A stretch of 64,000 nt of DNA, from NCBI GenBank assembly GCA_035368605.1, contig DAOSLF010000003.1:889-64888 (forward strand). The letters are read 5' to 3'. Positions 1 to 26,419 of the stretch are shown in pieces (the first letter of the stretch is position 1; each line of letters begins with the position of its first letter). The notes beneath the pieces were generated by a model, which saw only the letters and a program-made list of their open reading frames with translations, was not told the DNA's origin and searched no databases. Origin of the DNA: Candidatus Omnitrophota bacterium (lineage in GTDB: Bacteria; Omnitrophota; Omnitrophia; Omnitrophales; Aquincolibacteriaceae). The position numbers and the translations under genes are program-made.

Positions 1-3000
1 AATGTGAAGCGCCGGCGCCCGTCTCGGCACGGACAAGTTCTCCGGCCGCGTTATAAGTCATCGTGTAATCCCCGACTTTACATTGAAACCCGAGGAACCC
101 GCCCTCCTCATCCTGCACAATTTCACGCGACGTCCCTTGAGGCAGAGACTGTTCAAACAGCGAACCCTCCGCGAGCCGTCCCCGGACCGGAACGTAATCT
201 TCAATTTCAAGAATCAATCCGTTCGAAAACTGGATCTGCCCGGCTTTGATTCGCTGATCTTCATCAAACACAAGATTGACCGCCGTGGCGCCCGAGGCGA
301 GATGAACTTCGGATCCCTGATCCCCCTCAAAAATGATCCAGGAACCGTCCGGGGCCTGATACCCCTTCAGACTGACAGCCCGAAGACCTGTTTCCGCATA
401 GGCTGCATTCTTATAGTCGCCGGGGTCGGGAACCGCTCCGTCAGGAAGCGTTTGGAAATAATCGGAATATTCATAAAGGTAACCATCCCGGGTAAGATGC
501 TTGATCAGTTTGCCGTCGGCGTCATAAAACCATACCGTCCCGCGTTCATCCGTGATCCGGGTCTCTTCACCTTCATAAGAATACCGGGTGCTGTTCAAAA
601 CACGGTTCCGGTAGGTCAATTCCGCTCCGATGATCTCCTCATCGGAATAAAGGTAGTGAGTCACGATCCCGTTCGGGTCTGCCGAGGTTAAAAGTTTTCC
701 GCCCCTGAACCGGCGGACTTCCCCGCTCACAGGATCCGTGAAAACGGTGATCTCGTTTCCTTCGCTGTCAAACTCATAGGAAAGATCATATTGCCTTCCA
801 TCCGGCTGGATAATCCTCCGGAGCGCGCCGTAGCTGTAACTGACCGCCGGGGACCCGTCCGGGGAAGTATGATCCGGGCCGCCGATACTGATCTCGGCCG
901 AGTTCTCGGAAAATTCATATTCGTTGACGATCCCGTTCGGAAGCGTCACGCGGGTCACCTCGCTTCCGTTCAGTTCAACCCGGGTTCCGTCAAATCTCCG
1001 GAAGGTCACAAGCCGGTTCGCCCCGGCAGTCGTGTCCGTGTGAATCATCCGCGTGGGAATATCCAGATAAGGCAGGAGCCCCGGAAAAGTGAGCGGTGTT
1101 CCGGCGGCAATGGTCGCGCCGACCGAAGAAAGGTTCTCGGCCTCGATCTTGAGATTCCTGATCCGGGAAGCCCGAATACCCGCCTGCTCCTCCCAGAGAG
1201 GCTCTTCAAAAGTTTTCAGGCTCATGTAGGAAACATCCTTGAAATAGACGCATCCTTCCTTTCCCACGCCGTCGCTTTCCTTCACAAGTTCGAGAGTGAT
1301 CTCGCCTTCCAATCCGGCTTTGCCCGCCATGGGGAACCAGAAGGTCCGGTATTCCGGCACCAGGTTTTTCATGCTGAACGCATATAAAGTGTTGTAGCCC
1401 GTTCCTTTTATCTTGAACGTAAAATCCTGGTTCCATGTCATGGAGGGATCCTGCATGAGGGTGACCGACAAAAATCCGTAATCGGAGATCTCGAACGGAG
1501 AGTTTTGATGATTAAAAACCATCCCGAGGACGTGGCTTGTGCTCGTGCTTTGATATTGAAACATAAAATACGCCTGGGAGTCATAGCCGATATCGGCCCG
1601 CCGGGCATAGATCATTTCGCCCTGGGGGTGATCGGGATAACTGAACTCCCCGACGATCGACCCCGGGATCGCGATCACATTCAGCGTTCTTGATATAAGC
1701 TGCGCCCGTTCAGCGGCCCTCTCGGGAAGCATGAGATATTCGAAAAGAGGCATGGAAACGGGCTCGCCTTCCCGCGTAAATTCCGCGTCAACCCCGACAA
1801 CGCGGCCGGCCGCGTCGTAACGATAAACAAGATCCGTGCGGCCATTCCGGAGGGTCTCGACCGCCGTGATCTCGGTCCCCCGGTAATAAAGCCATATGCC
1901 CTCGCCGACACTCACCCGGTTACCCGCGAATTCATCAATATCCATCTCCCTTCCGTCGTTCAGAACCGCATGGGCCCGGATCAGGTTGCCGTCGTCTCCG
2001 AACTCAATCCCCGTAAGAATGGCCTGAGGGGTCGTGATCGAAATGATCCGGCCTCCTTCCATCTGAACCGTGTTCCCGTCCTGAATCATCGTCCGGAGCG
2101 TCCCGTCGGTATTGAAAATCCTCCGGCGGTCATTGTCCTGGATATTGAAGGAATGGATCGTTCCCCGGAGGTCCTGATCGTAGTAAAAACGACCCGTTTC
2201 CAGCTTCCCCCGCGCGAGATCAATGATGAAACTCGCAATCCCTTTTTCATAGAGCACCGTCCGGCCGTTACGAAAAACCCACTTTGAAAGAAGCCCGTTT
2301 TCAAAATACTGAATACTGCCGTCCGCCCGCCGGAGAATGCCGCTTACAAGTTTCCCGGACGAATCGATCGTAAAATTCTCGAGAATTTCCTCGGCATCGC
2401 GAACCCCTCCGCCGAAAGCCTCCGTGACGATCCCGTTCCGGATCAATGTCCTTATCTCCTGTTCGCTTTTACCGAGCATCATCGCCCAGTCCAGCCGGTT
2501 CGTTGTCCGGACCTTGAAGCCGGAAAGCGGTCCGATATAAATTTCTCCGGCAACAGGCTCCCCGTTCGCCGACTGAATGACCGTCGTTATCATCTCCGCC
2601 CTGCCGTCAAGCGGCCGCACCACCGGGATCGTGATGAACTGCCATCCCTGTTTTAGCGGTTCGGTCAGAAAAATATTCCCGGTCCCCTTGAATTCGAACT
2701 TCAGTCGTATGTTTTCCGGCGTGCCGTCACCGACGCGGACGGGAACCGAAAGAAAATCAAAGCGGTCCAGGTCCAGGGGCGCGGCGCTGTACTTGTTCCA
2801 AAGCCCCACAGGATGCTCCGCGTCCAGGAACTGGAACGCTATCTGGCGGACTTCCCCCAATAACGGATCGCGGATCAGTTCGCTTGCCGCGTAACCATGC
2901 AGAGGCGTATAAAAAGCTCCCTGGGAATCCGCCCTGTTGTAAACATCGAGCTCAAAACCTCCCATGAGGGCCCGGCCGAGATCGGTATGCCCCGTCAACA

Positions 3001-6000
3001 AAAGATATTCCTGGATATCCATTTCCCTGAAACTGCCGCCCTCTCCGAACTCGATCGCGCTGTGGTGGAAAGTTCCGTCCGGCTGGCGATAATTGAACAC
3101 ACGACCTTCGCCGAATCTGGAATCAAAAACGTTCGGAATAAAGCTCGGCTGTTTCACAAGGCCGGACATCTTTCCGTCGGGCATAACGCTTCCGCCGTCA
3201 TAAAGCACTTCGACGTTTTCGCCGAACGGGGGCATGGGGAGCGCGGAATCCGTCGCGGGGTTCAGATTCAACAGGAACGATCCGTAGAGGTTGTCGAAAC
3301 GCTCCGCGACACCCCGGTCCATCAGATAGCTCCGCAAATAACCCCGGCTCGTCGTGAGAAGCGAAAGAATGAATGATGCCTGGTCCACACCGAAATACTG
3401 CGACGAAAAAACAGGCTCTTCGGTCGGCAAGATCTCCCCCGTGACGGGATCCGTATGAAGAACGGTTCTTATCGAAAGAGCGTCCACAAAACCCGCTTCC
3501 GTCACGATCTCCGGAAAACTCGTTTCCAGATTCTTGAGAAACTGAAGCGTGTAATGCGGGGCCAGGCCAAAGGCCGAGGCTGTCCCGTAAATTGACCCGA
3601 TATCGCTATGGCGGACATCATCCGCTTCGGCGGCCGCGGGAAGACCGATTTTGCCTTCGTATCCGTACCCGGGATTATCGCCCGCCGACAAAAGGCCGGG
3701 ATTCCCGGTCCCGAAAGCGTATTCGGCCTGCACGTAAAGAAAATTCCGGAGCGCGACATTGAATTCGGGATACCGGGTTTCATCCACGTGGATCAGCGGC
3801 CAGAACATCTGGAAGGTCCCTCCGTCAAACGGCGCCGCGAGTTCGATTGCCCGGCCTTCTTCCGTCAAGTAACGCCGGATTGTGACATCCAGTCCGTCAA
3901 ACGCAGGTTGATACTCGGGGTAATTCGCCGCGAGCCAAACCATGCCCGGGCGAAATTCGTTGAACAGGCGGTCTATATAATAATTGTTAACAAACTCCCA
4001 TTGCCCGGTCTGCGGATTAAGTCCGTAAGCACCCCGGAAACGTTTTTTCACGGAATCATAAAAAGCCGCGTATCCCGCTTCCTGGGCTGTCAGGATCGCG
4101 TTAGCCCGTGCGACAATACTTTCCCGCAGAACCGTCATATCGGGCTCAAGAGAAAGATTTTTTACGGCCCCGAGCACACTCGAAAGGCTGACGGCAAGGT
4201 TCAGCGTGTCTCCAAAACCGTATTGATCGGAAAGGTTTTCGTAACGGTAAGTCTTTATGACCTCCCCGGTTGGCTCCCCGGATTCATCAAGGACCGGCTG
4301 CTCATTTTCAATGATCCTGAAAAAAGCGACCATACCGTTCCATCCCGCCTGACGCTGGACTTCCTGATAGACCGCCAGCAAGGCTTCCAGTTTTTCGAAA
4401 GCCTGTTTCCTTGAAACAAGCGGCGTTTCAAAATCACCGGCCGCGATCGCGGCAAGGATCTCGGCCCAGAAACCCACAAGCGTAGCCTGGCTGTAATCCG
4501 ACTGTTGATCTTCCGCGAGCAGGTAATTATCGAGAGGAAGTCCGGTGCCCGCGTGGAGCCCTTTGCCTTCCGAAAAAAATCCGAGCTGTTTTTCGACCAG
4601 ATACCGCCGGTAAGCGGCTTCGGCGGCCGTCAGAGCCTCCGGAGGGGACGCGGGACCGGGCTCTTGAAATTCGATCGCGTCCGAAAATTCGAGAAAACGA
4701 CCGGACGCGGTAATTTGTTTGACGATCTCATTGTTTTCGATCAGGCATTGGGTCCCGTCACGAAAAAGGATCTCGCCGCTGAAAATATACCCATTCTCAT
4801 CAACCGTCAGTGAACGCAGGCTCGCGTTGGGAAGTTCGATCACGGAAACAAAGTGCTTCCCGGGAAGAAGCTCGGGAACCTCATAGGGCTCGATCCGGAC
4901 CTGTCTGGATTGAACATAACGGACCGGGCGGCCCTGCTCGAATTCGATCCGTCCCCCGCCCGGGAGATCGATCTTTACAAGTTCGGTCAGCCTTTCAGTC
5001 AATCCTTCGCCGTTCGGATAGCGGATCACCCGATAGGTCATTCCGTCTTCCGTGATGAGGCTCTCGGGTTCCCGGCTGTTCCGATAATCGATGAAGATCG
5101 TCCGGACACCATCCGCCCCGATCCGTTCGATCACTTTGGAGTTTCGATAGATCTCTACCTGCCCGTCCGCGGATGTCCTCCTGAAACCCGTCAGGCTGGT
5201 CCCGTTCCAGACAAGCTCCGTTAAAACAGTTCCGTCCGAGAGCACGATACGGTCAAGCGAACTTTCGTCGATACGAAGAAGCGTCCCGTCGCTTAGCCGC
5301 AGGCCCTCCAGCGCGCCCTCCGCGTTATAGATCTGAACCACACCGCTTCCGTCATCCCAGGAAATCGAAAGAAGGTCGCCGTTTTGAGATATCTGATTCC
5401 CGATCGAAACAACCCGGTGATCCGGCCCCGTCAAGGCGACGGGCAGGCCATCCGCAAGCCGCAGAATCTCTCCTTTTCCTGAAACCGTCTGCCGGATATT
5501 TCCCGTCGCGTCGTATTCGATCCGTTCGAGAAGATCATTCTGCAGGGTCTCCCAGGCTTCAGGGAACGCGTCCTTGTTTTGGAGGAAAAGGCCGGGATCT
5601 ATTTCGGTCGAAAAACCCGCCGGCCTGACGGCAATAATCTTCGATAAATAACCCGTAAGATCATGCCCTTCCCGGCTGATACTTGTTTCATAGCGGAAAA
5701 AATCACCGTTCGCATTCCTGTAACCTTTGAGAAATCCGTCTTCATAATAGACCTGGGTCCCATCCGAACGTTTGATCCAGAGCGGTTTTCCCTGATCGTC
5801 ATAGCGGGCGGTGAGGTTCTCTTCAAAACTCAAAATCCCGGTCACGGAGCCTCCATCACCCGACCGGTAGGCGAAATCCGTTCTTTTTGAATCGGAGCCG
5901 AGAACATAGGCCACGGTCCCGTCCTCGTGGTAGATCAACTTCTCCCCCGACGGTTTCTCCAGGCAAACCGGCTTCCCGCCCTGATAAAGCATCCGGTCAC

Positions 6001-8260
6001 CGTTCTGAAAAACAAGAAGCCCTCCCGCGAGATTGTTCCCGGAATCAAATTCCGGAAGGTAAAGCGTATAAACCGAAGGCTGTTCGACCGCCGTCAGCAT
6101 ATCCCCGGCATACTTCAGCACCATGCCGTTTTGCGTGGTTAAGGTTATCGGGTCCGTGCCCAAAACGGGCACTCCGGGCACTTCGGGAACTTCGGGGGCA
6201 TTTTTCCGGAGCATCACTTCATGAGCCAGATAGGTCGAACCGCTTCCCCGGCTGCCGCTGATCAAAAGCTCGTTGAGACCCGGCCGGAGTCTCCAGGTCT
6301 CATTATGAAGCTCTCCGTCCACCGTGTAAGTCAGCGTATAGAATTCCTGATCCGTCAAAGACGGAGACGTCACGACCACAACGGGCAACACCGGGGCCGT
6401 CGTGTAAAAAATACTGTCGGAAAAAACCGTTCTGTTACCGGCCCGGTCCTCGACCTCGCACAAAACCGTTTTTAATCCGTCTCCTCCTTCCCCGGGGATC
6501 TCAACAACCTTGTTCGCTCCGTAAGTCTCCCAATCCGTCCAGCTGGACCCGTCATCCAGTGAAAACCTGACGCTGGCAACCGGGGAAAGATCGTCCTGCG
6601 CCTCGATAAAAAGAGCCAGGGCCCTCGAATCCGTCTCGGCGTCCCCCCTGTTGATCCGTAAACTCCCCCACGGCGGCACCGTATCCAGAAAAATCGTCAC
6701 GGTCTTCGTCGAAGTGCGTCCGAAAATATCGGTCGCGGAAAGAACCACCGTGTTCTCACCTTCCTGCAGGGAATAGCTCCGGGTCCGATCCTTGCCGTCC
6801 ACGGTGTAACGAAGTTCGCAGGAGCTTTCCCGGGTGTAAACCGGCTGTTCGGGTATTTCGATCTCGGGCGGAGTCGTATCAAGGACCCGGCGGCCGTCAT
6901 TGTAAAATTCTTCGACGGAACCTTCTTCGTAAAGGACCTGATAACCGGTGACGGCTTGTCCGTCCGTGATATTCCGGATAATGCTTTTGGCGGGTATCGT
7001 GCTCGCGCGGTCGAGCGCGGCTGTCAGCGATTCGGGGAGAAATGCGCCGCGGCCATAAGACTCGGAGGTCGCCCGGATACTGTAATTCCCGGTCCCGGCG
7101 TTCACGAATACCGGATCGGCCTTCAGATTTCCGGCTGTCTGCGCCGCGGCCGCGGGAGGCGTAGCGCTGCCATAAGCGGTACTCCGTTCCGTATTCTTCC
7201 AAAAGGTATTGTTCTCCACCACGGCATATCCGCGGCCTGGCTGACCGGCGGAGTGGGCGGCCCAGGAGAACTCATAGATCGATGAAAATGTGCTTCCCGT
7301 GAAAATATTATTACAGATCCGGCTCTTCGCTCCGGAAAGGACGTTTATGGCGATATCGTTCGCCACGAAGGTGTTGTACCTGATCACGGTCGTGTCCTTC
7401 GGGAGCTGGACTCCGACATGCGTCATCGAAAAATAATTCATTTCGATCAGCGTATCGGAACCGTTCCGGACATGAATGCCGTAATCCTTGTTAGCCACGA
7501 TCCGGTTATGGCGGATCACAACCCTGTCTCCTTCAACGCGGATCGCAGCGGAAGGAGTCCCCGCGTAAGGGCCGATCCCCGAGATTGTCAGTCCTTCAAT
7601 CCGGTTATTCCCCATCGCGCGAATCCCCTGGATTCCCGTTTCATAATCACCGTGAAGGATCGTCGTATCTGCATTCTCCCCCTGCAAATTCACCCCGGCT
7701 TTCAGAATCAGCCCTTGGGGACACCCAAAGGCGTCGCGTTCGTAATGATAAGTGCCGGAATGGATGAAAAGGGTCGTCCCGGCTTCGGCGTTATCGATCG
7801 CGGACTGGATCGATTGTCCTTCATAGACATGACGGAACATTCTGCCATCCGGAAGTTTTTCCGTTACGATCCGTCCGGATTCATCATAAATATTCTGGTC
7901 CGTTCCCGGACTTTCGGAAAGCGGACCGGCGTTATTAGCGAGGAACTGCGTGGTGGCATCCGCAAGAACCGGTTCATCCGGTGCCGTTGATGAAACATTT
8001 GCCGCCGCGACAACCGGTCGGACCGCGGTGAGATCATAGTCCTGCGACGGAAGACCATCGCACCAGACCGTCTGGTGCCAAACAAGACAGAATACCAGGC
8101 AAAGCGCCACCACTCTGATGGACAGCCGATGCGAGCAGCGGCAGAAACGCTTCGCGAACGCAGGAAGTGGCAAGACTCCCGAAAGAGAAGCCTCCGCTTG
8201 AACCCGCGGCAAGATCATCACATCCCGATCACTTTGGCGTTCGTCGGATATTTTCTTCAT
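1..8260 (-). CDS. giant secreted/membrane-anchored multidomain protein, partial (C-terminal end lies beyond window start); beta-helix + glucoamylase-like region + YD/RHS-type repeats
   Basis: My manual translation of the reverse strand from the ATG at 8260 finds no stop down to position 1. The ORF track shows only short overlapping plus-strand ORFs here, which is typical of the antisense of a long high-GC gene. N-terminus is MKKISDERQ... followed by a hydrophobic stretch VVALCLVFCLVWHQTVW (signal-anchor). An NNRIEGLTISG... segment resembles parallel beta-helix repeats. A central region (GFWAEILAAIAAGDFE...FQMFWPLIHVDE...) resembles glucoamylase-like alpha/alpha domains. The C-terminal portion within the window carries YD-type repeats (YRYDAAGRVVGVD, FYDADGKLIKHLTRDGYLYEYSDY, HYLYSDEEIIGAE). 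The start codon could alternatively be the second in-frame M. Confidence 0.6.
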   Translation of the reverse strand, partial: MKKISDERQSDRDVMILPRVQAEASLSGVLPLPAFAKRFCRCSHRLSIRVVALCLVFCLVWHQTVWCDGLPSQDYDLTAVRPVVAAANVSSTAPDEPVLADATTQFLANNAGPLSESPGTDQNIYDESGRIVTEKLPDGRMFRHVYEGQSIQSAIDNAEAGTTLFIHSGTYHYERDAFGCPQGLILKAGVNLQGENADTTILHGDYETGIQGIRAMGNNRIEGLTISGIGPYAGTPSAAIRVEGDRVVIRHNRIVANKDYGIHVRNGSDTLIEMNYFSMTHVGVQLPKDTTVIRYNTFVANDIAINVLSGAKSRICNNIFTGSTFSSIYEFSWAAHSAGQPGRGYAVVENNTFWKNTERSTAYGSATPPAAAAQTAGNLKADPVFVNAGTGNYSIRATSESYGRGAFLPESLTAALDRASTIPAKSIIRNITDGQAVTGYQVLYEEGSVEEFYNDGRRVLDTTPPEIEIPEQPVYTRESSCELRYTVDGKDRTRSYSLQEGENTVVLSATDIFGRTSTKTVTIFLDTVPPWGSLRINRGDAETDSRALALFIEAQDDLSPVASVRFSLDDGSSWTDWETYGANKVVEIPGEGGDGLKTVLCEVEDRAGNRTVFSDSIFYTTAPVLPVVVVTSPSLTDQEFYTLTYTVDGELHNETWRLRPGLNELLISGSRGSGSTYLAHEVMLRKNAPEVPEVPGVPVLGTDPITLTTQNGMVLKYAGDMLTAVEQPSVYTLYLPEFDSGNNLAGGLLVFQNGDRMLYQGGKPVCLEKPSGEKLIYHEDGTVAYVLGSDSKRTDFAYRSGDGGSVTGILSFEENLTARYDDQGKPLWIKRSDGTQVYYEDGFLKGYRNANGDFFRYETSISREGHDLTGYLSKIIAVRPAGFSTEIDPGLFLQNKDAFPEAWETLQNDLLERIEYDATGNIRQTVSGKGEILRLADGLPVALTGPDHRVVSIGNQISQNGDLLSISWDDGSGVVQIYNAEGALEGLRLSDGTLLRIDESSLDRIVLSDGTVLTELVWNGTSLTGFRRTSADGQVEIYRNSKVIERIGADGVRTIFIDYRNSREPESLITEDGMTYRVIRYPNGEGLTERLTELVKIDLPGGGRIEFEQGRPVRYVQSRQVRIEPYEVPELLPGKHFVSVIELPNASLRSLTVDENGYIFSGEILFRDGTQCLIENNEIVKQITASGRFLEFSDAIEFQEPGPASPPEALTAAEAAYRRYLVEKQLGFFSEGKGLHAGTGLPLDNYLLAEDQQSDYSQATLVGFWAEILAAIAAGDFETPLVSRKQAFEKLEALLAVYQEVQRQAGWNGMVAFFRIIENEQPVLDESGEPTGEVIKTYRYENLSDQYGFGDTLNLAVSLSSVLGAVKNLSLEPDMTVLRESIVARANAILTAQEAGYAAFYDSVKKRFRGAYGLNPQTGQWEFVNNYYIDRLFNEFRPGMVWLAANYPEYQPAFDGLDVTIRRYLTEEGRAIELAAPFDGGTFQMFWPLIHVDETRYPEFNVALRNFLYVQAEYAFGTGNPGLLSAGDNPGYGYEGKIGLPAAAEADDVRHSDIGSIYGTASAFGLAPHYTLQFLKNLETSFPEIVTEAGFVDALSIRTVLHTDPVTGEILPTEEPVFSSQYFGVDQASFILSLLTTSRGYLRSYLMDRGVAERFDNLYGSFLLNLNPATDSALPMPPFGENVEVLYDGGSVMPDGKMSGLVKQPSFIPNVFDSRFGEGRVFNYRQPDGTFHHSAIEFGEGGSFREMDIQEYLLLTGHTDLGRALMGGFELDVYNRADSQGAFYTPLHGYAASELIRDPLLGEVRQIAFQFLDAEHPVGLWNKYSAAPLDLDRFDFLSVPVRVGDGTPENIRLKFEFKGTGNIFLTEPLKQGWQFITIPVVRPLDGRAEMITTVIQSANGEPVAGEIYIGPLSGFKVRTTNRLDWAMMLGKSEQEIRTLIRNGIVTEAFGGGVRDAEEILENFTIDSSGKLVSGILRRADGSIQYFENGLLSKWVFRNGRTVLYEKGIASFIIDLARGKLETGRFYYDQDLRGTIHSFNIQDNDRRRIFNTDGTLRTMIQDGNTVQMEGGRIISITTPQAILTGIEFGDDGNLIRAHAVLNDGREMDIDEFAGNRVSVGEGIWLYYRGTEITAVETLRNGRTDLVYRYDAAGRVVGVDAEFTREGEPVSMPLFEYLMLPERAAERAQLISRTLNVIAIPGSIVGEFSYPDHPQGEMIYARRADIGYDSQAYFMFQYQSTSTSHVLGMVFNHQNSPFEISDYGFLSVTLMQDPSMTWNQDFTFKIKGTGYNTLYAFSMKNLVPEYRTFWFPMAGKAGLEGEITLELVKESDGVGKEGCVYFKDVSYMSLKTFEEPLWEEQAGIRASRIRNLKIEAENLSSVGATIAAGTPLTFPGLLPYLDIPTRMIHTDTTAGANRLVTFRRFDGTRVELNGSEVTRVTLPNGIVNEYEFSENSAEISIGGPDHTSPDGSPAVSYSYGALRRIIQPDGRQYDLSYEFDSEGNEITVFTDPVSGEVRRFRGGKLLTSADPNGIVTHYLYSDEEIIGAELTYRNRVLNSTRYSYEGEETRITDERGTVWFYDADGKLIKHLTRDGYLYEYSDYFQTLPDGAVPDPGDYKNAAYAETGLRAVSLKGYQAPDGSWIIFEGDQGSEVHLASGATAVNLVFDEDQRIKAGQIQFSNGLILEIEDYVPVRGRLAEGSLFEQSLPQGTSREIVQDEEGGFLGFQCKVGDYTMTYNAAGELVRAETGAGASH

Positions 8261-8856
8261 CGATCAGAAAGATATCCGCGCGAAAGATCAAAGTACACGG
8301 ATTTAAAGCTTAAATTTTTTGGTTCTATCTCATAAGACGATTCATATCGCTTATAAATAGATTTTTGGGGCCGGGCAGCAAAAACCGCTAAAAAAGGATC
8401 AGGGATGGAACGGCGAGAAAGGCAATGCTAGAAGCTGAACTTTCCTGCGCAATGTTTTTCTTCGAGGATATCAAATATCTCGTTGATGTAGCCCTGGATG
8501 TGGACAGGCGGCTGATTATCGAAGAGGAGGGACAGGTTCAGGAGGAAACGGCGGACTTCCGTGGCGAGCTTCTGGTCTTTGATCCTGGAAAGCCTTGTTT
8601 CCAATTCTTCCATCAACATTTGCTACTATCTCCCGTTTTCTTCAGGGAATATAACTCATTTTATGATAATTTGCAAGTCAATAAAGTCTTCGATATAGCA
8701 TTAAATAGCTATTGATTGCTTTGTATAGTCGATAAACCAAATAATTGATTTAAATTCACTAAGGTAAAGAAGAATCCGGTTCGATAAGTAACCATGACGT
8801 TATACACTATCCGGTGCCGGTTGCAGACTCTCAAACATAAACGAGGAGCCTCTTTC
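8261..8856. promoter_or_regulatory. AT-rich (~40% GC) divergent intergenic/promoter region between giant gene and fadL-like gene
   Basis: About 600 bp of markedly lower GC than flanking DNA, with divergent gene starts on both sides. The SD GAGGAG sits 9 nt before the fadL-like ATG at 8857. Several weak -35/-10 candidates, none convincing. Confidence 0.4.
8428..8619 (-). CDS. hypothetical small (63 aa) helical protein
   Basis: ATG start preceded by GGGAGAT (SD) about 8 nt upstream. Third-position GC bias is gene-like. Translation MLMEELETRLSRIKDQKLATEVRRFLLNLSLLFDNQ... is not recognised. It lies inside the AT-rich divergent region. Confidence 0.3.
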   Translation of the reverse strand: MLMEELETRLSRIKDQKLATEVRRFLLNLSLLFDNQPPVHIQGYINEIFDILEEKHCAGKFSF

Positions 8857-10272
8857 ATGAAAAAGACCATAGCGGTCCTTGCGATTCTCAGTATCACATT
8901 TTTGTCCCCCTTTTCCGCCTGGGCCGTCGGGTCAGGAGGCCTCGAGAACGCCTCCTTCAGCGCCCAACAGCTGAGCCTTGGCGGCGCCACGACAGCGACA
9001 CCGGATGAACCGGCCGCCATCTCCTACAATCCCGCCGGCATCGTGGACCTTCCCGGCGTCCAGGTCCAGGCCAGCCAGAACTTTATCAGCATGCTGACGT
9101 TCAAGGATAATGACGTCACAGGGGACACCCGGAGCTCGGGAACGCTCGCGTATGTCCCGACCGCGTATGTCACGATCAACCCGGGAAGGGTCTTCTGTGA
9201 CCGCCTGGCTTTCGGCATCGGAAGTGACTCCCCCTTCGGGCTCATGAACAAGTACAATTCCAGTGATCCGGCGACCCATTACACGGGCTGGCGGAACTAT
9301 CTCAAGATGTTCACGCTAAAACCGACCGTCGCCTACAAGTTCACGGACAAGCTCTCGATCGGCGGCGGCCCGATGTGGTACCGGATTTACGATTTCGGAG
9401 GCATCCAGGGTTATCCGAACAACCTCATCACGATCCCCTTCCTCGGAGTCAATACAGCTGACGGACAGATCAGGATCAACACGTCCGGCAACCATTGGGG
9501 ATGGCAGCTCGGCACACTCTATAAATTCAATGAAAAACACCGTGTCGGTTACTACTTCCGCAGTCCCGTGGTCGTGAACCTGAAAGGCCGGGTCAAGGTA
9601 GAAAACTCCAACATCTCACCACTTCTCGGCGGTCTCGGCCTCCGTAATTTTGAGACCGGTGTGCATACGAAGATGAGCCTTCCGATGAGCATGACTTGGG
9701 CCTACGCGTACCAGCCGACGAAGAAAACACACTACGAAGCCGATTTCATCTGGACCCGCTGGTCCACCATGAAACGCGTCTATTTCGTGAACGACACTTC
9801 CGGAAACGCGCTGGACGATGCGATCCTGAACGCGGTCCGCAGCGCCGACAAAGACTGGCGGGACGGCTTTGGATTACAGCTCGGGGCAAGCCACAAGCTC
9901 ACGGACAGGCTGACGCTCCGCGGCGGAAGCTGGTTCTACTGGACCCCGGTCCCGAAAACCCATTTCACACCAAGTATCCCCGATGCCAATCACCTGGTGC
10001 TTTCTCTCGGTCTCGGCTACAAGCTCAGCAAATATCTTGTCGCCGACCTCGCCTATTACAACTCGTTCTATTTCAAACGCCGGATCAATAATGACATCGC
10101 CGAGAATGCCGCGCTCCTCAACTCCTCCGTGGACGGGCATTACAAGACTTATTCGCAGGGCCTTACCGTCAGCATGACGCTCAAGTGGGATGATATCTTT
10201 CCCCGCGTGACGCGCGCGGGCGACGAGGAATCCATCGGTTCGTCCATGAGCATGAACCCGGCCGCCAGATAA
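8857..10272 (+). CDS. outer-membrane transport protein, FadL/TodX (OMPP1) family
   Basis: Start chosen at the internal ATG (MKKTIAVLAILSITFLSPFSAWA, a signal peptide) with GAGGAG SD. The N-terminal hatch-like segment includes AISYNPAG (NPA-type motif), characteristic of FadL-family proteins. Alternating aromatic residues and length are consistent with a beta-barrel. Confidence 0.6.
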   Translation: MKKTIAVLAILSITFLSPFSAWAVGSGGLENASFSAQQLSLGGATTATPDEPAAISYNPAGIVDLPGVQVQASQNFISMLTFKDNDVTGDTRSSGTLAYVPTAYVTINPGRVFCDRLAFGIGSDSPFGLMNKYNSSDPATHYTGWRNYLKMFTLKPTVAYKFTDKLSIGGGPMWYRIYDFGGIQGYPNNLITIPFLGVNTADGQIRINTSGNHWGWQLGTLYKFNEKHRVGYYFRSPVVVNLKGRVKVENSNISPLLGGLGLRNFETGVHTKMSLPMSMTWAYAYQPTKKTHYEADFIWTRWSTMKRVYFVNDTSGNALDDAILNAVRSADKDWRDGFGLQLGASHKLTDRLTLRGGSWFYWTPVPKTHFTPSIPDANHLVLSLGLGYKLSKYLVADLAYYNSFYFKRRINNDIAENAALLNSSVDGHYKTYSQGLTVSMTLKWDDIFPRVTRAGDEESIGSSMSMNPAAR

Positions 10273-14588: not shown

Positions 14589-15974
14589 TCAGGCGGCGGT
14601 GTCGCGGGAGGTAGTCAGGACGAGGGTGTCCTGAAGGGATTTTTTCTTCCTGCGGAAAAGCTCCAGGTCTTCGCGGGAGGCACGCCACGAATAGGACTTC
14701 GTCTGGGACAGGAAGAACATCAGATAATCCCAGTCCTTGTAACCGTAACCATGAAGGACATCCGCAAACTCACGGGCCGCGAGCTCCCAGAGATAAATAA
14801 CATCTGCATTGATGCCTCCGGTCGCGGAATAGACCTTCTGGCGGATGTCCTTCGAAGGGGCCGTCATATAGAGCGAATAATGGCACGGCTTTGAAGGTTC
14901 GTACTTCAGCATCACCTTGACACCGGAGAACGTGTTATAAATCCGCTCGTCCTGACCGATCAGCATCTGGATGCGCCGCGTAAGCTGAAGGGCAAGGAAT
15001 TCCCCCGTCGTCATATCCGGCACGTTGAACTCCGTATCCCACCGGTCCAGGCTTTTCAGGATCATATCCCGGTTCATCGGGAACGACGGATCGTCAAACG
15101 CGCTGGCCATCATCGCCATCGGGATGATCCGCGTGATCTTTTCCTTTTCGCCGTCGACAGACACGTGGAAAAGGTATTCAGGGGTCTCCGGAGGAATCTT
15201 CGCGCCTTTCGGCGTCACCCTGGTCTTCGCATAAACGACGACCTGCCGGTCCTGGAGTACGAGGCTCCGGATATCGAGAATCTCCCAGGACGCCTGCGCA
15301 CGTTCAAGGGGGTATCCCGTCGCGTCCTCGAAATAGAACTCTTTCATCCACTTGACGTCCTCCTGGCCTTTGAAATACCGCGGCTTGAGCTCCTGGCGGG
15401 TCATCGTGTTCAGGTCCGCGAAGAATTTCCGGACCGGCCGGTGCCAGAGGATGGGACGGTTCAGCTGGATTTCGTAAATGAGGCGTTTGCGGTATTCGCT
15501 GCGCGGAATGTCCCAGAAGCGGACCTTCTTCACATCGTCGCTCGCGCCTAGGAACATCATCTCCATCCCCGTCTTTTCGGTGTCCGCGGCCTGGAGGTAA
15601 TAAAAATCGATCTTCTTGTCGGTGGAGAGCATGACGCGCGACATCGAAAAGAGCATGTCCTCAATGCGGTCGATCGCTTTTTCGGTCGGCTGGAAAAGCT
15701 GTTCCATATCGGTCACCTGGCCGGAGAGGATGGCTTCCTTGAAATCCATCGCGAAGAGCTGATCGAGGGGGAGAAAAACGCCGAGCGTCGTTCCGTTGAT
15801 CCTCACGTCACATTGGCGGATGCCGTATTCCTTCTCGGCGATCGACGCGATCTCTTCCTTGACCTTCTCGGCCCGGTAACTGGCGGGCGTGCAACCGGCA
15901 AGGAAGAGGACCGTGAAAAGAAAAAGGGACAGGCTCGCGACCGGAGAGATCGGACCTGTCCCCTGTTTCCTCAT
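14589..15974 (-). CDS. hypothetical lipoprotein (461 aa)
   Basis: The signal peptide ends in the lipobox LAGC. No recognisable domain. The gene starts 7 nt after the ftsH-like stop, consistent with co-transcription. Confidence 0.7.
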   Translation of the reverse strand: MRKQGTGPISPVASLSLFLFTVLFLAGCTPASYRAEKVKEEIASIAEKEYGIRQCDVRINGTTLGVFLPLDQLFAMDFKEAILSGQVTDMEQLFQPTEKAIDRIEDMLFSMSRVMLSTDKKIDFYYLQAADTEKTGMEMMFLGASDDVKKVRFWDIPRSEYRKRLIYEIQLNRPILWHRPVRKFFADLNTMTRQELKPRYFKGQEDVKWMKEFYFEDATGYPLERAQASWEILDIRSLVLQDRQVVVYAKTRVTPKGAKIPPETPEYLFHVSVDGEKEKITRIIPMAMMASAFDDPSFPMNRDMILKSLDRWDTEFNVPDMTTGEFLALQLTRRIQMLIGQDERIYNTFSGVKVMLKYEPSKPCHYSLYMTAPSKDIRQKVYSATGGINADVIYLWELAAREFADVLHGYGYKDWDYLMFFLSQTKSYSWRASREDLELFRRKKKSLQDTLVLTTSRDTAA

Positions 15975-21655: not shown

Positions 21656-24600
21656 CTAGAACTTCCCCGTCATCCGCACGAACGGACCGCTGTTATGATA
21701 ATTGTTCGCGTCCCGGAGGTCATCCGTAAAATCGGTAAAATTATAACCGATCCCGATCCGCACGTAATCATAGATTTCACGATCAACCTCGAAAAGCATC
21801 CCGTGCCGTATCGTATCGAGCGCGGAGGATTGCCACAAGAGCCGATATTCGGCCGCGATATCCCATTTCCGGGTCACATGGAAATTAATGCGGCTGACAG
21901 ACAAGAAATTACCGGTATCCGTCTCATCAAGCGTGTTACGGGCCAAAGTGAACAAGTCGCGATCCTGGGTGATCAGCGTTGCCCGTTTCCACGCCAGTTT
22001 CTGTGCGAGACCGAAGAACCGATTCACGTCATAGATCGCGTCCATTGAGATAACATGCGCGATCTCATGGAACATGTTTTCGTTGTAATAAGAATTCACG
22101 TACTGAAAATCATTTCCGATGTCTCTCAAATAGCTATACTTAAAGAGAAAATTCAGGTGGTCAAGACCAATAGGGCGATAGGCAAAAGCCACGGTAAAAT
22201 CCGCAAAATTCCCAAGATTTGTTTGCTTGCTTTCATCCACGAGATCGAAAAGATAGGTGGCGCCATAATCAAATTTGGTCAGAAAAGTCAGCTCGCGATG
22301 AATTTGATATTGAAATGAATTGCGCAAGACCAGCTGATTACCCTTGGGATACGCACCATTGCTTCTCAGTTCCGCATAAGTCCGCGCACGGAGTTTTCTG
22401 CCGTCCGCGTAGGCCAGATAGCCTCCATAAACGTTGGAGCTGTTATTCTGCGCCAGGCTATTTTCAACCAATGTCAGCAGATTCCGGGCCATCGAACTGT
22501 CCAAGTGCCGCCGCTCATACTTCGCGCCGTAATCCCAGTGGTCGTTCAGCGCGCCCTCATAGCCGAGAATATCCGCAAAACCATCCACGCCCTGGTAGGA
22601 GGAGTACTCGCGTTCCGAATAAATTCGCGATTTCTCGGTAAGCGAAAAAGAGCTCCCGATCGCGGTTGAGAGTGTCCTCGAACCAATGCCGCGGTCGATC
22701 GAGCGGAGGTTCGCATAGCTTCGCGCGCCGTTGCCGTGGTTCCTTTCGAAGCCGAAGTAGGTCGAATCCCCCAGCGGACCGAACATCTGCTCGATATAAC
22801 CGAAGACATCCTTGATCAGCTCGCAACGCACACCGCCGCCAAACTGGTAATTGTCCGCCGAGTGAAGAGTCGTTTGCGCTTTCACATACGGCAAGAGGCG
22901 GTCATTGATATGGTAGCCGATCTTGGTCGCGATGCCGTGCTCATAGGGGATTTCGGAATAAAGCGAGGGCGTCAGGTTGGCAGCGTCCTGGACTTGGTCG
23001 ATGTTGCTGCGCTGGTATTCGGCCTGGGCAAGGTATTTGCCGTTATCGTAGGCAAGCTGGGCCGTGTGGGTCTGCAGGTCTTCGTAAGGGGCCATGATAT
23101 TATGCTCGGCAAGAGGCATCAACTGGCCGATCACCTCGCTTGAATCGAAACGGTAGCGGGCCGAGAAATTATCGGTGAACTTGTAACGGCTCGCGAGACC
23201 GTATTTCTTGAAACCTTCCTGGCTCGTCATGTGGCCGTTCGAAAAACTCGGCTCCACGCCCTGGACGTAACCGCTCACTTCGAGGTTCCTCACGGGTTCC
23301 GACTGCGCGCGGATCAGGTAGGCGTCCTCGCGCGGCCGCGTGTTGTCCCCGCGCAGGTTCCCTTCCGTCCCGAAGCTGAGCCCTCCGTCGAAAGAGACCG
23401 AGGAATCCATCTGCTTGTTCGCGGTGGTCGCGTACTCCGCGGTGATCTTGGTGTTGCGGCCGAACTTCATCATCAGGTCAACGCCGCGCATGTCGTAATC
23501 GTTGCCGCCGGTCCGTTTTTCCTCGACCGCCGTTGCACCGAGCCTCACGTGATCGCCGGCCCACACGTAACCGCGCAGACCGCGGTTGCCGATCTCCGGA
23601 AGGTCCGACGAGGAAGGTTCATACTCGTAGTCCACGATCAGGTAAACGGGATTGCCGTCCATGATATCGGCCGAAACGAGCGAATCCGTCGCGGCGACGG
23701 ACGAGAGCGGGCGGGAAAGAAGGATGCGGCCTTCGGCGTAGCTGATCTCGTAATCCGTCCCTTCCGTCATGTCGTGGCTCGTCAGCACCATCCCCGTAAT
23801 CTTGTCGCGGATCTCGACGCGAATCTTTTCGCTACCTTCGATCAGGTTCCGGTTGCGCGTGTAGAAAAGGGAGCCGCCCGTCGCGTAGAACTCGTTATGG
23901 TCGGCCCGTTTGTCCGAATCAGCCCAGAAAAACCGGAGACCGCGCTTCGGGTCCCCGTAGACCGTGCTCGCGACCGAATCGAAACTCCCCTTGAGGCCGG
24001 AGAGCGTCCGGTTATAGGTGGCCAGTTCGGTATCCGTGAATTCCGTCTTGAAGCTCCCCCATTTCAGATAAGACTTGTCCATCTCGACCAGCACATAGAG
24101 CCGCTGGGCCGTGTCCTGCGCCTCGTAGTCGCGTGCCGAGTAGTCGCCGTAGACCGGATAGTATTCGTCAGGGTCGAGGTTCGTGAACAGCGCGGAACGG
24201 CGATCCGAGGTGTCGTAGTGAGCCTTGACGAGGAACTTCCCCTTGAGTTTCGATTTCAGGAAAAAGGCCGCGCGGCCGTCCTCGGTGAACCCGTCGCGGT
24301 AGGCGTCGGAATCCGCGGCTTCCATCGCCCCGTTCGCGAAATTGATGCCGAGCTGCTCCTCGCCAAGGGCGACCATGAAGAACGTGCTGTCCTTGACCTT
24401 GATCTTTTCCTGGTAGGTCGTGCTTTCCCCTTTCGGATCCGCGGCCATGATGTTGAACTCGTGCTCGCCGGGCTCGACGAAGAACTCCTTCTGGAACATG
24501 CCGGTCTCGGGGTCCACTGTCACGGGGAGGTCGTTGATCATGACCTGGTACTCGGGTCTTGTCTTGCCCTGGACCCGGACCGTCGGTTTCGCGATGAGGG

Positions 24601-26419
24601 GGATGCTGCGCTTGCCGTCCTTAAAGAGGTTGAAATCCCCGACCGCCGGAAGCTCGGGCTGGTAGTTCTTCTGGGCCCTGGGATCGAGCTTGTTGTAGAC
24701 CTCGAAGAACTTGAGGGTTGTCCAATCCTCGTGGTGCTTCGCATCGCGAACCTTGAGCTGGTACGAATAGACGCCGGGCTTGATCATGAAACCATTCTCG
24801 GCCTTCCCGTCCCACGTCACCTCCGCGGGCGGCGCACCGATGCCGTAACCGGTCCAGACGGGCACGCCCATTTCGTCGCGGACCTCGATGGCCCATTTCT
24901 TGACGAACCTGGCGTAATTGGTGTCGAGCCTGAAGAGCGCGTCCTTTTCGAGGACCCCGACGCCGAGCTTCAGGAGCTCCGGTTCCATCATAATGTCAAG
25001 GTCCGGCCGGGAGATATCAACCCCCTGCGTGACCATGACCATCAGGTCCTTGCGGAACGCCTCGGGAATGCCGGAGGGCGGGAGCAGGACGGCAAAACTC
25101 GCCTTGCCCATGAGACCGGGCGTGATCTTCACGAGATAGGTCTCTTCGGTGATGAATTTCGTTCCTTCGGGAAGCGTATGCCCGTCGATCTTGACGAGAT
25201 GGCGGCCCGGCGCGACGCCGGGGATGTGATAGCGGCCGTACTCATCGGTGACAACCTTGATGCCCTCTTCCGTATAAAGCGTCACCCACGGCACGCCCTC
25301 TTCACCGCATTGCTGGACGCCGTCCTGGTTAAGATCGTTAAAGACCTTGCCGATGATGGTCCCCTCCTCAAAGATCGGATCGCCCACGACCGTGAACTGC
25401 ACGTGCGCCGTTTCGGAAAGCGTGCCGCCGCTCCCCTCCACCGTAACCTCCAGCGAATATGTCTTCCCGAGCTGGACACCGCTCGTCACGAGCGTGGCAA
25501 ACGTCACGTCATACGAGGCGCCGGGTCCGATCGTCCCGAGCGGGATGAGCAGCGAGCCGTCCTGCCCGGCGACCGACTTCCCGTTCACGCGGATCGAATG
25601 CTCGGCGTAGTCGAACCCGTTCGGAATCTTGACCCGCATGTTCGAGTTCGTGAAGGTGTTGCCGGAACTATTCCGGAAATGCGCATTAATCCCGATCGCG
25701 TCTCCTTTCTTGATGTGACGCTTGGACGCCGCAACCGTAAGCTTTGCCGGATTCACTTCCGCGTTCAGATCGTCATACAGAATATTTCCATATCGGGGAA
25801 CTGCACCGGCGCTGACACCGTTGGCATCCAAAACAAAAACAACTTTGGCCGCATTTTCAGGAACGATCGCAGTTATCGAAAAGAGCGTCCAGACGCCCAC
25901 CGGAGCGGTGGCAGCAGTGATTTTTCCCGTTTCAACGGGAGTTCCGATTTTCACCCCGGAGGCGTCCTCGAACTCGATCTTCATTCTCCCCCCCGTGTCC
26001 GCTGCCATGATGTCCGATTGGGCATAGCCCGAGAAAGTAATGTAATCTCCCGGCTTCACGTTGCTGTAGGTCTGGAACGTGAAGGTGCTTTCATAAAAAG
26101 CCGGCGCGTCAAAATAGGCCTGCAAATAAAGCGCGTAGGAGCCGTTCCTCGGGGCGAGAAAACCGGGCGGCAACCCGGCGGGATTAACCACTCCATCCCA
26201 GCGCCCCATTTTGGCGGTCGTGTTCAAAGGCCTGGTGTTATCTGCCCAGTTATTCTGCGTCCCGTCCCCAAGCGGCTGTTCAAAACTCGGGTTGCCGAGC
26301 ACGTTGGCGAAGGCGGAAGGCGTAAAAGCGAAAAACAGCCACAAACCACAAAACCATACGGCAATACGAAGCCGGGGCGCTTTCTTGGCGGGCATGTGGT
26401 GTGTGGCGCGTGACATCAT
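21656..26419 (-). CDS. giant (1587 aa) outer-membrane-associated surface protein: CBM4/9-like N-terminal domain, DUF11-like and SdrD-B-like repeats, large C-terminal beta-barrel-like region
   Basis: A signal peptide (…FAFTPSAFA) is followed by NVLGNPSFEQ..., the hallmark opening of CBM4_9-type modules. KVFNDLNQDGVQQCGEEGVPWVTLYTEEGIKVVTDEYGRYHI matches the SdrD B-type (CnaB-like) repeat. The last ~900 aa are rich in Y/G/N/D with alternating hydrophobics and end ...VRMTGKF (terminal Phe, an OMP beta-barrel signature). The ATG immediately follows the stop of the upstream OMP gene. Confidence 0.6.
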   Translation of the reverse strand: MMSRATHHMPAKKAPRLRIAVWFCGLWLFFAFTPSAFANVLGNPSFEQPLGDGTQNNWADNTRPLNTTAKMGRWDGVVNPAGLPPGFLAPRNGSYALYLQAYFDAPAFYESTFTFQTYSNVKPGDYITFSGYAQSDIMAADTGGRMKIEFEDASGVKIGTPVETGKITAATAPVGVWTLFSITAIVPENAAKVVFVLDANGVSAGAVPRYGNILYDDLNAEVNPAKLTVAASKRHIKKGDAIGINAHFRNSSGNTFTNSNMRVKIPNGFDYAEHSIRVNGKSVAGQDGSLLIPLGTIGPGASYDVTFATLVTSGVQLGKTYSLEVTVEGSGGTLSETAHVQFTVVGDPIFEEGTIIGKVFNDLNQDGVQQCGEEGVPWVTLYTEEGIKVVTDEYGRYHIPGVAPGRHLVKIDGHTLPEGTKFITEETYLVKITPGLMGKASFAVLLPPSGIPEAFRKDLMVMVTQGVDISRPDLDIMMEPELLKLGVGVLEKDALFRLDTNYARFVKKWAIEVRDEMGVPVWTGYGIGAPPAEVTWDGKAENGFMIKPGVYSYQLKVRDAKHHEDWTTLKFFEVYNKLDPRAQKNYQPELPAVGDFNLFKDGKRSIPLIAKPTVRVQGKTRPEYQVMINDLPVTVDPETGMFQKEFFVEPGEHEFNIMAADPKGESTTYQEKIKVKDSTFFMVALGEEQLGINFANGAMEAADSDAYRDGFTEDGRAAFFLKSKLKGKFLVKAHYDTSDRRSALFTNLDPDEYYPVYGDYSARDYEAQDTAQRLYVLVEMDKSYLKWGSFKTEFTDTELATYNRTLSGLKGSFDSVASTVYGDPKRGLRFFWADSDKRADHNEFYATGGSLFYTRNRNLIEGSEKIRVEIRDKITGMVLTSHDMTEGTDYEISYAEGRILLSRPLSSVAATDSLVSADIMDGNPVYLIVDYEYEPSSSDLPEIGNRGLRGYVWAGDHVRLGATAVEEKRTGGNDYDMRGVDLMMKFGRNTKITAEYATTANKQMDSSVSFDGGLSFGTEGNLRGDNTRPREDAYLIRAQSEPVRNLEVSGYVQGVEPSFSNGHMTSQEGFKKYGLASRYKFTDNFSARYRFDSSEVIGQLMPLAEHNIMAPYEDLQTHTAQLAYDNGKYLAQAEYQRSNIDQVQDAANLTPSLYSEIPYEHGIATKIGYHINDRLLPYVKAQTTLHSADNYQFGGGVRCELIKDVFGYIEQMFGPLGDSTYFGFERNHGNGARSYANLRSIDRGIGSRTLSTAIGSSFSLTEKSRIYSEREYSSYQGVDGFADILGYEGALNDHWDYGAKYERRHLDSSMARNLLTLVENSLAQNNSSNVYGGYLAYADGRKLRARTYAELRSNGAYPKGNQLVLRNSFQYQIHRELTFLTKFDYGATYLFDLVDESKQTNLGNFADFTVAFAYRPIGLDHLNFLFKYSYLRDIGNDFQYVNSYYNENMFHEIAHVISMDAIYDVNRFFGLAQKLAWKRATLITQDRDLFTLARNTLDETDTGNFLSVSRINFHVTRKWDIAAEYRLLWQSSALDTIRHGMLFEVDREIYDYVRIGIGYNFTDFTDDLRDANNYHNSGPFVRMTGKF

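Follow-up and report, generated by a model that had tools for sequence, protein, structure and literature searches.

A GH192-like domain of the beta-1,2-glucanase clan set among YD/RHS-type hairpin blocks in a conserved surface-type protein of Omnitrophota

Giant proteins of Omnitrophota are described (bioRxiv 10.1101/2023.11.21.568195) as largely extracellular and as combining adhesion and carbohydrate-active domains with C39-like domains and C-terminal transmembrane anchors, and the same work proposes that they attach to and process surface polymers of other cells. Omnitrophota themselves are ultra-small bacteria for which a predatory or parasitic way of life has been proposed (PMC10066038). 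Here we analyze a gene at the left end of a 64,000-nucleotide stretch of Candidatus Omnitrophota DNA (the window; contig DAOSLF010000003.1, positions 889 to 64,888), which is read on the minus strand over the first 8.26 kb and whose product, judged by its orthologs, would be a protein of roughly 4,300 residues. Two further groups of described proteins bear on it. The first acts on beta-1,2-glucans, which Gram-negative bacteria have in the periplasm as cyclic and osmoregulated glucans. The beta-1,2-glucanase families GH192-194 were defined in 2025 as small stand-alone enzymes; the founding GH192 structure, PDB 8XUJ, is that of EeSGL1 from Endozoicomonas elysicola, in clan GH-S with GH144 and GH162, and mutagenesis backs both its general acid, E221, and its candidate general base, D149 (PMC12102758). 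The second group comprises the Rhs/YD toxins and their relatives (RhsA 7Q97, Tse5 8CP6, TcB-TcC 4IGL, teneurins), which have the YD-type beta-hairpin repeat in common with the protein analyzed here. RHS toxins proper are defined by an RHS core, a closed beta-cocoon, a variable C-terminal toxin, a cognate immunity gene and a delivery marker. We lean, with modest confidence, towards a reading in which the Omnitrophota protein is a membrane-anchored, exported envelope or surface protein that would bind a polysaccharide-rich target and cleave beta-1,2-glucan-type polymers.

The segment on which this reading turns is an (alpha/alpha)6 domain in the middle of the protein, with residues numbered throughout from ATG 8260 (residue n = window 8261-3n to 8263-3n):

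3251..4633, minus strand: GH192-like (alpha/alpha)6 domain, residues ~1210-1670, assigned by phmmer, a family profile and Foldseek against 8XUJ
4208..4210, minus strand: Asp1351, equivalent by alignment of EeSGL1 D149 (candidate base), codon verified
3956..3958, minus strand: Glu1435, equivalent by alignment of EeSGL1 E221 (general acid), the clan-defining Glu (XcSGL E239), codon verified
3812..3814, minus strand: Phe1483 in DGGTFQ, aligned with the Phe of EeSGL1 DGAYFQ and invariant in the family (DGGxFQ)

The domain matches 8XUJ at E 1.5e-12 in phmmer, and a profile of 25 more distant or stand-alone relatives reaches the same structure at E 4.8e-118, with GH189 at 1.6e-30, Cgs at 5.7e-24 and GH144 at 1.6e-4. 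Foldseek comparison with 8XUJ of the predicted model, in which half of the domain is at low pLDDT, gives E 7.5e-11 and a TM-score of 0.62 on the target. EeSGL1 and the window domain are alike in fold, in the general-acid Glu, in the candidate-base Asp and in the Phe near the nucleophilic water (the clan-defining Phe and Tyr being F286 and Y367 of XcSGL), and both D1351 and E1435 are invariant in 12 of 12 family members. By alignment and predicted fold, the domain belongs to the beta-1,2-glucanase clan as a GH192-like member whose catalytic pair is apparently intact; it is probably active, with beta-1,2-glucan as its putative substrate. An earlier sequence-only reading of this DNA had described a glucoamylase-like alpha/alpha region, of which the alpha/alpha fold stands while the family does not: filing the domain under PF10091 'Glycoamylase' or GH144 was rejected, that profile being sub-threshold in the window protein (17.8 vs 27), and the closest relative is the GH192 enzyme EeSGL1. 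The two differ in setting, EeSGL1 being a stand-alone enzyme of 447 residues and the window domain being embedded mid-way in a protein of ~4,300 residues, between YD hairpins and domains resembling carbohydrate-binding modules (CBM-like domains). In orthologs of the giant protein the 459-residue domain is 52-64% identical to that of the window. When 1.84 billion representatives were searched exhaustively with HMMER, only 200 relatives of the domain came up at E<=0.001, most of them within proteins 600-8,000 residues long, and large proteins seem to contain the GH192-like domain as a recurrent module. The metagenome-assembled genome (MAG) UR.bin134 has a paralogous copy of it on contig JAKJDL010000005.1 (L050), a second GH192-like domain with 31% identity to residues ~1193-1678 of the window protein.

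The coding status of the gene is well defined, and its first two features are the frame itself and its N-terminal export signal:

2..8260, minus strand: giant-gene open reading frame (ORF), 2,753 codons counted from ATG 8260, leaving the window at its left edge
8060..8173, minus strand: putative N-terminus and probable Sec signal peptide or signal-anchor, residues 30-67, LPLPAFAKRFCRCSHRLSIRVVALCLVFCLVWHQTVWC, with putative cleavage

Between the stop codon at 8264-8266 and window base 2 the minus-strand frame stays open over 2,754 codons, a length for which the chance of zero stops, from the base composition of the segment, is ~1e-50; the other two minus-strand frames hold 108 and 118 stops over the same 9 kb, and the next-longest open stretch anywhere in the window spans 1,089 codons. 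Codon positions 1/2/3 have a GC content of 0.59/0.43/0.64, in line with coding DNA. The product is colinear over 98% of its length with orthologs of 4,267-4,436 residues (41-62% identity), and because of this colinearity we take the window to hold roughly the N-terminal 64%, or about two-thirds, of a protein of ~4,300 residues. In an independent assembly, that of UR.bin134 (L009), the same frame is open at 96.6% nucleotide identity over window 1108-6985, which, together with the colinear orthologs, makes a frameshift artefact in this frame very unlikely; over the gene body the identity of ~97% at the amino-acid level against 96.6% at the nucleotide level points to purifying selection. The open reverse strand of 8.26 kb running off the window edge, the signal-anchor and the parallel beta-helix of the sequence-only reading were all recovered here, and the stop or frameshift that it had named as a possible break in the frame is absent from the UR.bin134 assembly.

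That the gene is an artefact or a pseudogene, arising from a chance frame, mis-assembly or decay, is next to negligible in our estimate. A 40-mer at window 61-100 has no exact match in genome and metagenome contig collections, and the mosaic join near residue 440 relative to the closest MAG, described below, could in principle be a chimeric assembly; against this stand the figure for an open frame by chance, the coding-type codon-position GC, the colinear full-length alignment to many orthologs, the conservation of catalytic residues and domain cores, and an N-terminal module that is a normal member of its family, 61% identical to that of ortholog P0004.

Three codons are candidate starts (ATG 8260, ATG 8218 and TTG 8173), and the true start probably lies nearer TTG 8173 than ATG 8260, because residue 50 of the window protein pairs in alignment with residue 11 of the closest ortholog, P0001, and because TTG 8173 fits the ortholog signal peptides. 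A start at this codon yields a typical basic-hydrophobic signal sequence, ...AKRFCRCSHRLSIRVVALCLVFCLVWHQTVWC-DG (the hyphen marking the putative cleavage site), like the N-termini of the orthologs, in which a basic stretch and a hydrophobic stretch are followed by a small-residue site such as VTWA-DS, while the frame itself stays open for ~30-50 codons upstream of the ortholog start positions (window 8113-8260, minus strand). The hydrophobic peak of the window protein lies at residues 42-60, within the predicted signal-anchor. In three ortholog loci (L001, L003 and L007) an 81-residue ORF without counterpart in the window overlaps the start of the giant gene, and a promoter and terminator scan of window 8000-8900 found sites no more numerous than in shuffled sequence.

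Behind the signal peptide the protein opens with a beta-helical head and an Ig-like region, at the junction of which the comparison with UR.bin134 changes character:

7031..7843, minus strand: right-handed parallel beta-helix (NosD/CASH-type) head, residues ~140-410, above Pfam threshold
6161..6853, minus strand: three probable Ig-like beta-sandwich domains, residues ~470-700, tentative and with weak sub-threshold matches
~6940..6985, no strand: mosaic breakpoint relative to UR.bin134 (L009 1-2053), marked by a drop of identity across the site

The head resembles NosD/CASH beta-helix proteins and scores above threshold with both Pfam models, Beta_helix (PF13229; E 2.6e-9, 37.3 bits against a cut-off of 25.9) and NosD (PF05048; E 4.4e-9, 36.5 bits against 23.6), with a DUF1565 match at residues 150-357. 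To the NosD equivalog TIGR04247 it matches in part only (E 2.4e-10, 39.5 bits against a cut-off of 300). It is no maturation protein of nitrous-oxide reductase, and the match allows no catalytic assignment. The Ig-like region is conserved in all orthologs and gives sub-threshold matches to Big_13 and Glucodextran_B (Pfam) and to an OmpL47-type domain (E 1e-4).

Left of the breakpoint, in the gene body, the window and UR.bin134 are 96.6% identical at the nucleotide level, and in bins of 50 residues the proteins are 92-100% identical from residue ~450 to residue ~2350, that contig ending at ~2384; residues 1-440, comprising the signal peptide and the beta-helix head, show only 22-74% amino-acid identity, and the region to the right of the breakpoint (the upstream ORF and the end of the FadL gene) 72-81% nucleotide identity. 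The two head modules are ~55% identical, no closer to each other than to distant orthologs, and the heads closest to that of the window belong to P0004 (61% identical, with a body at only 50%) and to P0012, a protein of different architecture; P0012-P0020, other large Omnitrophota proteins, have only the head in common with the window protein. This mosaic points to a cassette-like exchange of the head or to a gene body that passed recently from one lineage to another, although a chimeric assembly of the UR.bin134 MAG could in principle be its cause. Separately, the beta-helix heads of P0005-P0008 and P0010 carry an insertion of ~100 residues at about residues 250-400 (e.g. ...GFQLEIQDPQGAYSYYMEYSNDYGASWIRAK...), which is absent from the window protein, P0001-P0004, P0009 and P0011 and may be taken as a further sign that the head is a variable, modular part of the protein.

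Downstream of the Ig-like region, three blocks of beta-hairpins are separated by the glucanase domain and two CBM-like sandwiches:

4676..6160, minus strand: beta-hairpin block 1, residues 701-1195, locally YD/Rhs-like and not scoring as RHS_repeat
2486..2920, minus strand: beta-rich domain after the glucanase, residues ~1781-1925, tentative and weakly related to the CBM-like insert
1748..2386, minus strand: YD/RHS-type hairpin block 2, residues 1959-2171, with one RHS_repeat stretch (E 2.3e-6, 28.3 bits)
1214..1696, minus strand: CBM-like beta-jelly-roll, residues ~2189-2349
1064..1198, minus strand: helical linker, residues ~2355-2399, with helices in the structure model
2..1051, minus strand: YD/RHS-type hairpin block 3, residues 2404-2753, with four RHS_repeat stretches, cut by the window edge

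Over the whole window protein RHS_repeat (PF05593) scores 37.2 bits against a cut-off of 22, from scoring stretches that are sparse (~5 in total, of which block 1 has none, block 2 one and block 3 four), while TIGR01643 stays below its cut-off (13 vs 15.8) at residues 2560-2593. Block 1 gives RHS_repeat at E 9.2 with weak Tcp10_C and MORN_2 matches, but residues 741-950 are modeled by AlphaFold as beta-hairpins at pLDDT 72-91, with local Foldseek matches to Rhs cores and teneurins at E 2e-11 to 1e-7 and a TM-score of ~0.1. Block 2, which holds the canonical motif YRYDAAGR at residue 2146, is likewise modeled as beta-hairpins (pLDDT 68-91) with local Foldseek matches to Rhs proteins and teneurins, and block 3 reaches E 2.2e-10 and 41.1 bits with RHS_repeat; taken together, the local 3Di similarity of the hairpin blocks to Rhs/YD proteins spans E 1e-13 to 1e-7. 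The beta-rich domain after the glucanase has no Pfam match and aligns colinearly with the CBM-like domain (BLASTP E 9e-7, 21% identity over 153 residues). Its fold is left tentative because residues ~1680-1940 are poorly modeled in the AlphaFold model of residues 741-1940, whose mean pLDDT is 60.

Past the window edge ~1,550 residues are known from orthologs, the contig of UR.bin134 ending within the gene ~1.1 kb short of the edge. The orthologs continue, in this order, with an ILEI-like domain (E 7e-6, just below threshold), a long coiled coil, a C39-like segment, a membrane hairpin and a C-terminal domain; a DUF4214-like motif, spotted by eye and unscored, lies between the coiled coil and the C39-like segment. 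The latter matches profile positions 46-121 at E 0.009 and 16.3 bits against a cut-off of 22, and its conserved HFGQSAFLSL shows, by eye, no Cys at the expected place: it is probably, at best, a non-catalytic C39-like domain. Exactly two strongly hydrophobic helices follow at about 3426-3474, ~30 residues apart, which would form a membrane hairpin anchoring the protein, and behind them come weakly hydrophobic segments rich in Gly and Ala and a final domain of ~450 residues. No other part of the orthologs is as poorly conserved as this last domain, which occurs in ~4 types, of which A, B and C are distantly homologous to one another (22-28% identity, E 1e-5 to 1e-25); in the orthologs it has no Pfam, profile or PDB match. 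The C-terminal end types have conserved Ser/His motifs in common, ..H/YSG.. and ..GAxHxD/N.., and a guess at an alpha/beta-hydrolase drawn from them (..HSG.., ..GAxHxD..) found no support in any match and is not claimed.

The genes that follow in the ortholog loci, in a region that the window does not reach, bear on whether the variable end could be a toxin:

L001 22797-25127, L003 22938-25182, L006 18206-20829, L007 18074-19960 and L008 17959-19001: downstream accessory gene sets

The gene abutting or overlapping the stop of the giant gene belongs to one family across end types (26-40% identity), whose members have TPR repeats behind a signal or anchor at the N-terminus; next to it lies a module of ~100-140 residues, separate in some loci and fused to its neighbor in others, and in every locus with DNA there follows a protein of ~200 residues with the motif VVEDIQYPFEKGGGL and 61-82% identity. 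Gene lengths had hinted at a downstream gene that co-varies with the type of C-terminal end, an idea that was dropped when all-against-all BLAST showed homology across types. By homology and predicted export signals, these downstream genes are conserved exported accessory proteins of TPR type and not type-specific immunity genes. Some ortholog loci additionally have a MazE/PIN pair.

The sequence-only reading had placed YD/RHS-type repeats at the C-terminus and had suggested that a polymorphic toxin, with an immunity gene after it, might lie beyond the window. Repeats that score as RHS_repeat are indeed present and are neither too few nor too irregular to pass the Pfam threshold, but they are not confined to the C-terminal side, since blocks lie at 701-1195, 1959-2171 and 2404-2753. 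The toxin proposal is not supported by the comparison with orthologs at the same syntenic locus, used here as a proxy for the window's own C-terminus. A classical RHS/YD polymorphic toxin would have a cocoon, a cleaving core, an encapsulated variable toxin and a cognate immunity gene, and such an architecture would fit the above-threshold RHS_repeat score, the rank of Rhs effectors, teneurins and TcB/TcC as top Foldseek matches, the poor conservation and ~4 types of the last ~450 residues in the orthologs, and the position of the window's own C-terminus past its edge. However, neither the window protein nor any of 11 relatives has the core motif PxxxxDPxGL, the RHS-associated core TIGR03696 has no match at E<=1 in P0001 and P0002, and the ~5 scoring repeats are interrupted by enzyme and CBM-like domains. 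Pfam and NCBIfam scans of the window protein, P0001 and P0002 contain no PAAR, VgrG, Tc or other secretion-system marker. The ortholog C-termini match no toxin in Pfam or PDB, types A, B and C being mutually homologous; conservation of the downstream genes extends across types, and their products have signal or anchor sequences; and the giant gene is a syntenic single-locus core gene with housekeeping genes as neighbors. Since the orthologs show no RHS core and no toxin match and the downstream genes are homologous across end types, the polymorphic-toxin reading is unsupported, and we hold it to be very improbable; classical RHS toxins have the core, the delivery markers and the co-varying immunity gene, none of which was found in the orthologs.

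Effector delivery that dispenses with the RHS core is a somewhat less remote alternative, albeit still an improbable one: the N-terminal part would bind a target, the hydrophobic region insert, the C39-like segment process and the C-terminal domain act as effector, a scheme that resembles large clostridial and MARTX toxins in logic and not in ancestry. The order found in the orthologs, with binding modules, the C39-like segment, hydrophobic and Gly/Ala-rich segments and a divergent C-terminal domain, is compatible with it, as is the rate at which the ends outpace the body (the N-terminal parts of P0001 and P0002 are 62% and 61% identical to the window protein, and their ends 22% identical to each other), and the Ser/His motifs common to the ends might mark a hydrolase. 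Its processing step would nevertheless depend on a C39-like match that is sub-threshold (E 0.009, 16 bits vs 22) and shows no obvious catalytic Cys, its effector on an end domain without toxin or hydrolase match and with downstream genes that are not type-specific, and its evidence on orthologs rather than on the window's own sequence. More speculative still, and decidedly improbable in our view, is that the ~1,085 hairpin residues of the three blocks, about one Rhs cocoon, form a teneurin/Rhs-like shell decorated with, or enclosing, the glucanase and CBM-like domains, the C39-like, hydrophobic and C-terminal parts then being a core-less, self-translocating effector module that breaches the periplasm of a Gram-negative host. 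Were this true, it would amount to a new contact-dependent weapon built from RHS parts without RHS core or immunity logic.

For the reading that we favor, of an anchored surface protein that binds and cuts glycans, a sequence of steps can be proposed. The signal peptide would direct Sec export; the hairpin blocks would serve as rigid spacers that hold out the glycan-binding modules and the one hydrolytic domain; the protein would bind a polysaccharide-rich surface and cut beta-1,2-glucan-type polymers; and the two-helix hairpin near the C-terminus, placed by the orthologs, would anchor the whole. As Omnitrophota have been proposed to be parasitic or predatory, the likeliest target would be a host or prey envelope. 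Several points weigh against this reading. Identity to the characterized GH192 enzyme is only ~20-25%, so that the substrate is a prediction; the clan Tyr is not mapped by pairwise alignment, in which a His of 8XUJ stands opposite the conserved Tyr of GSIYGTA; and the model of the glucanase domain is poor over its C-terminal half. The window covers the N-terminal ~64% of the protein, the C-terminal third being read from orthologs and not from its own sequence. A host or prey is brought in by analogy with the literature only, and in a diderm cell a hairpin in the inner membrane would leave the ectodomain periplasmic unless a further export step exists, none having been identified.

The last point leads to the main rival, which we consider unlikely, if less so than the effector schemes: the protein would be anchored in the inner membrane with a periplasmic ectodomain that remodels the cell's own beta-1,2-glucans (osmoregulated periplasmic or cyclic) or other envelope polysaccharides. 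A self-directed role of this kind would suit a conserved, vertically inherited gene in housekeeping synteny, the transmembrane hairpin of the orthologs, and the envelope genes FadL, AsmA and SecDF in the window, and a GH162-type gene ~8.5 kb upstream in two ortholog loci hints at endogenous beta-1,2-glucan metabolism. Yet no beta-1,2-glucan synthase was found among the window ORFs scanned, an ectodomain of ~3,400 residues with adhesin-type modules and long hairpin spacers is atypical of a periplasmic housekeeping glycosidase, and the head exchanged between near-identical strains, with the fast-diverging C-terminus, fits surface exposure under diversifying pressure.

The setting of the gene was compared across eight ortholog loci, six with DNA and two by gene list only. 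In the window a divergent gene for an outer-membrane protein of FadL type adjoins the giant gene, followed by GpsA, DnaJ, HrcA, FtsH, UvrA and DapB, and further genes encode an AsmA-like protein, glycogen synthase, RecJ and SecDF. All eight ortholog loci show the order HrcA-GrpE-DnaJ-(thioesterase)-GpsA-FadL (opposite strand)-small ORF-giant gene-TPR. The named relatives of the giant protein are all Candidatus Omnitrophota. A pattern scan with one genome per GTDB species returned 44 loci, ~30 of which span the whole 1,200-residue query, and their labels are Omnitrophota or Omnitrophica save for some 'uncultured bacterium' MAGs and one Elusimicrobia MAG; the order block 1, glucanase, sandwich is common to ~30 Omnitrophota species representatives. 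As gene order and homology indicate, the giant gene is a vertically inherited core gene of the clade and not a mobile toxin locus. Between it and the FadL gene lies one further conserved feature:

8428..8619, minus strand: small ORF of 63 residues (MLMEELETRLSRIKDQKLATEVRRFLL...), tblastn E 9e-22

In L001 and L003 the ORF found at this position has 69 residues and is 65% identical to the product; every ortholog locus examined has one of 65-70 residues there, and the window's small ORF has no Pfam match. It is probably part of the giant-gene locus, perhaps as a regulator or a co-translated partner. The GH162-type beta-1,2-glucanase gene, of ~930 codons (PF26157), lies at L001 1-1556 and L003 1-1555, a place taken in the window by a 461-residue ORF without Pfam match (14589-15974) and FtsH. 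Elsewhere on the minus strand of the window are genes for a 1,587-residue protein with SdrD_B and FlgD-Ig-like matches, which may be another surface protein (21656-26419), a 524-residue protein without Pfam match (26420-27994) and a 1,380-residue protein with a marginal TOBE_2 match only (50775-54917).

Set beside the giants of the same phylum, the protein follows a familiar plan at a smaller scale. The 'Dockerin-type' and 'Archaeovorin' giants (West-Roberts et al. 2023) and the architecture clusters of long proteins (bioRxiv 10.64898/2026.06.07.730766) have the phylum and the design logic in common with it: an N-terminal bulk without transmembrane segments that carries adhesion and carbohydrate-active domains, and a C39-like domain and transmembrane anchor near the C-terminus. 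The giants, however, exceed 30,000 residues (30-85 kaa), so that this protein, at ~4.3 kaa (its orthologs have 4,267-4,468 residues), is roughly seven- to twenty-fold smaller, and its orthologs P0001 and P0002 match none of SecA-DEAD, dockerin and TSP3. Searched by term, neither Omnitrophota giant-protein preprint (10.1101/2023.11.21.568195; 10.64898/2026.06.07.730766) yielded a beta-1,2-glucanase, and that of West-Roberts et al. 2023 yielded 'RHS' twice only and no YD repeats; among the papers searched, none names both Omnitrophota and a beta-1,2-glucanase. Large surface proteins being already known in Omnitrophota, the protein is best read as one of these with a new architecture.

Three aspects of this variant bear on the biology of the group. 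The hairpin blocks suggest that YD/RHS repeats can be structural spacers without core, toxin or immunity gene, and 'RHS repeat' alone is no ground for annotating a polymorphic toxin. The swap of a head between two genes that are otherwise ~97% identical suggests modular recombination, and perhaps selection on a surface-exposed binding head. Finally, a GH192-like domain with a predicted intact catalytic pair, placed inside a conserved surface-type protein of 4.3 kaa, unlike the stand-alone GH192-194 enzymes, gives a concrete and testable hypothesis on what large Omnitrophota proteins may attack or bind, in a protein far more tractable than the giants of 30-85 kaa.

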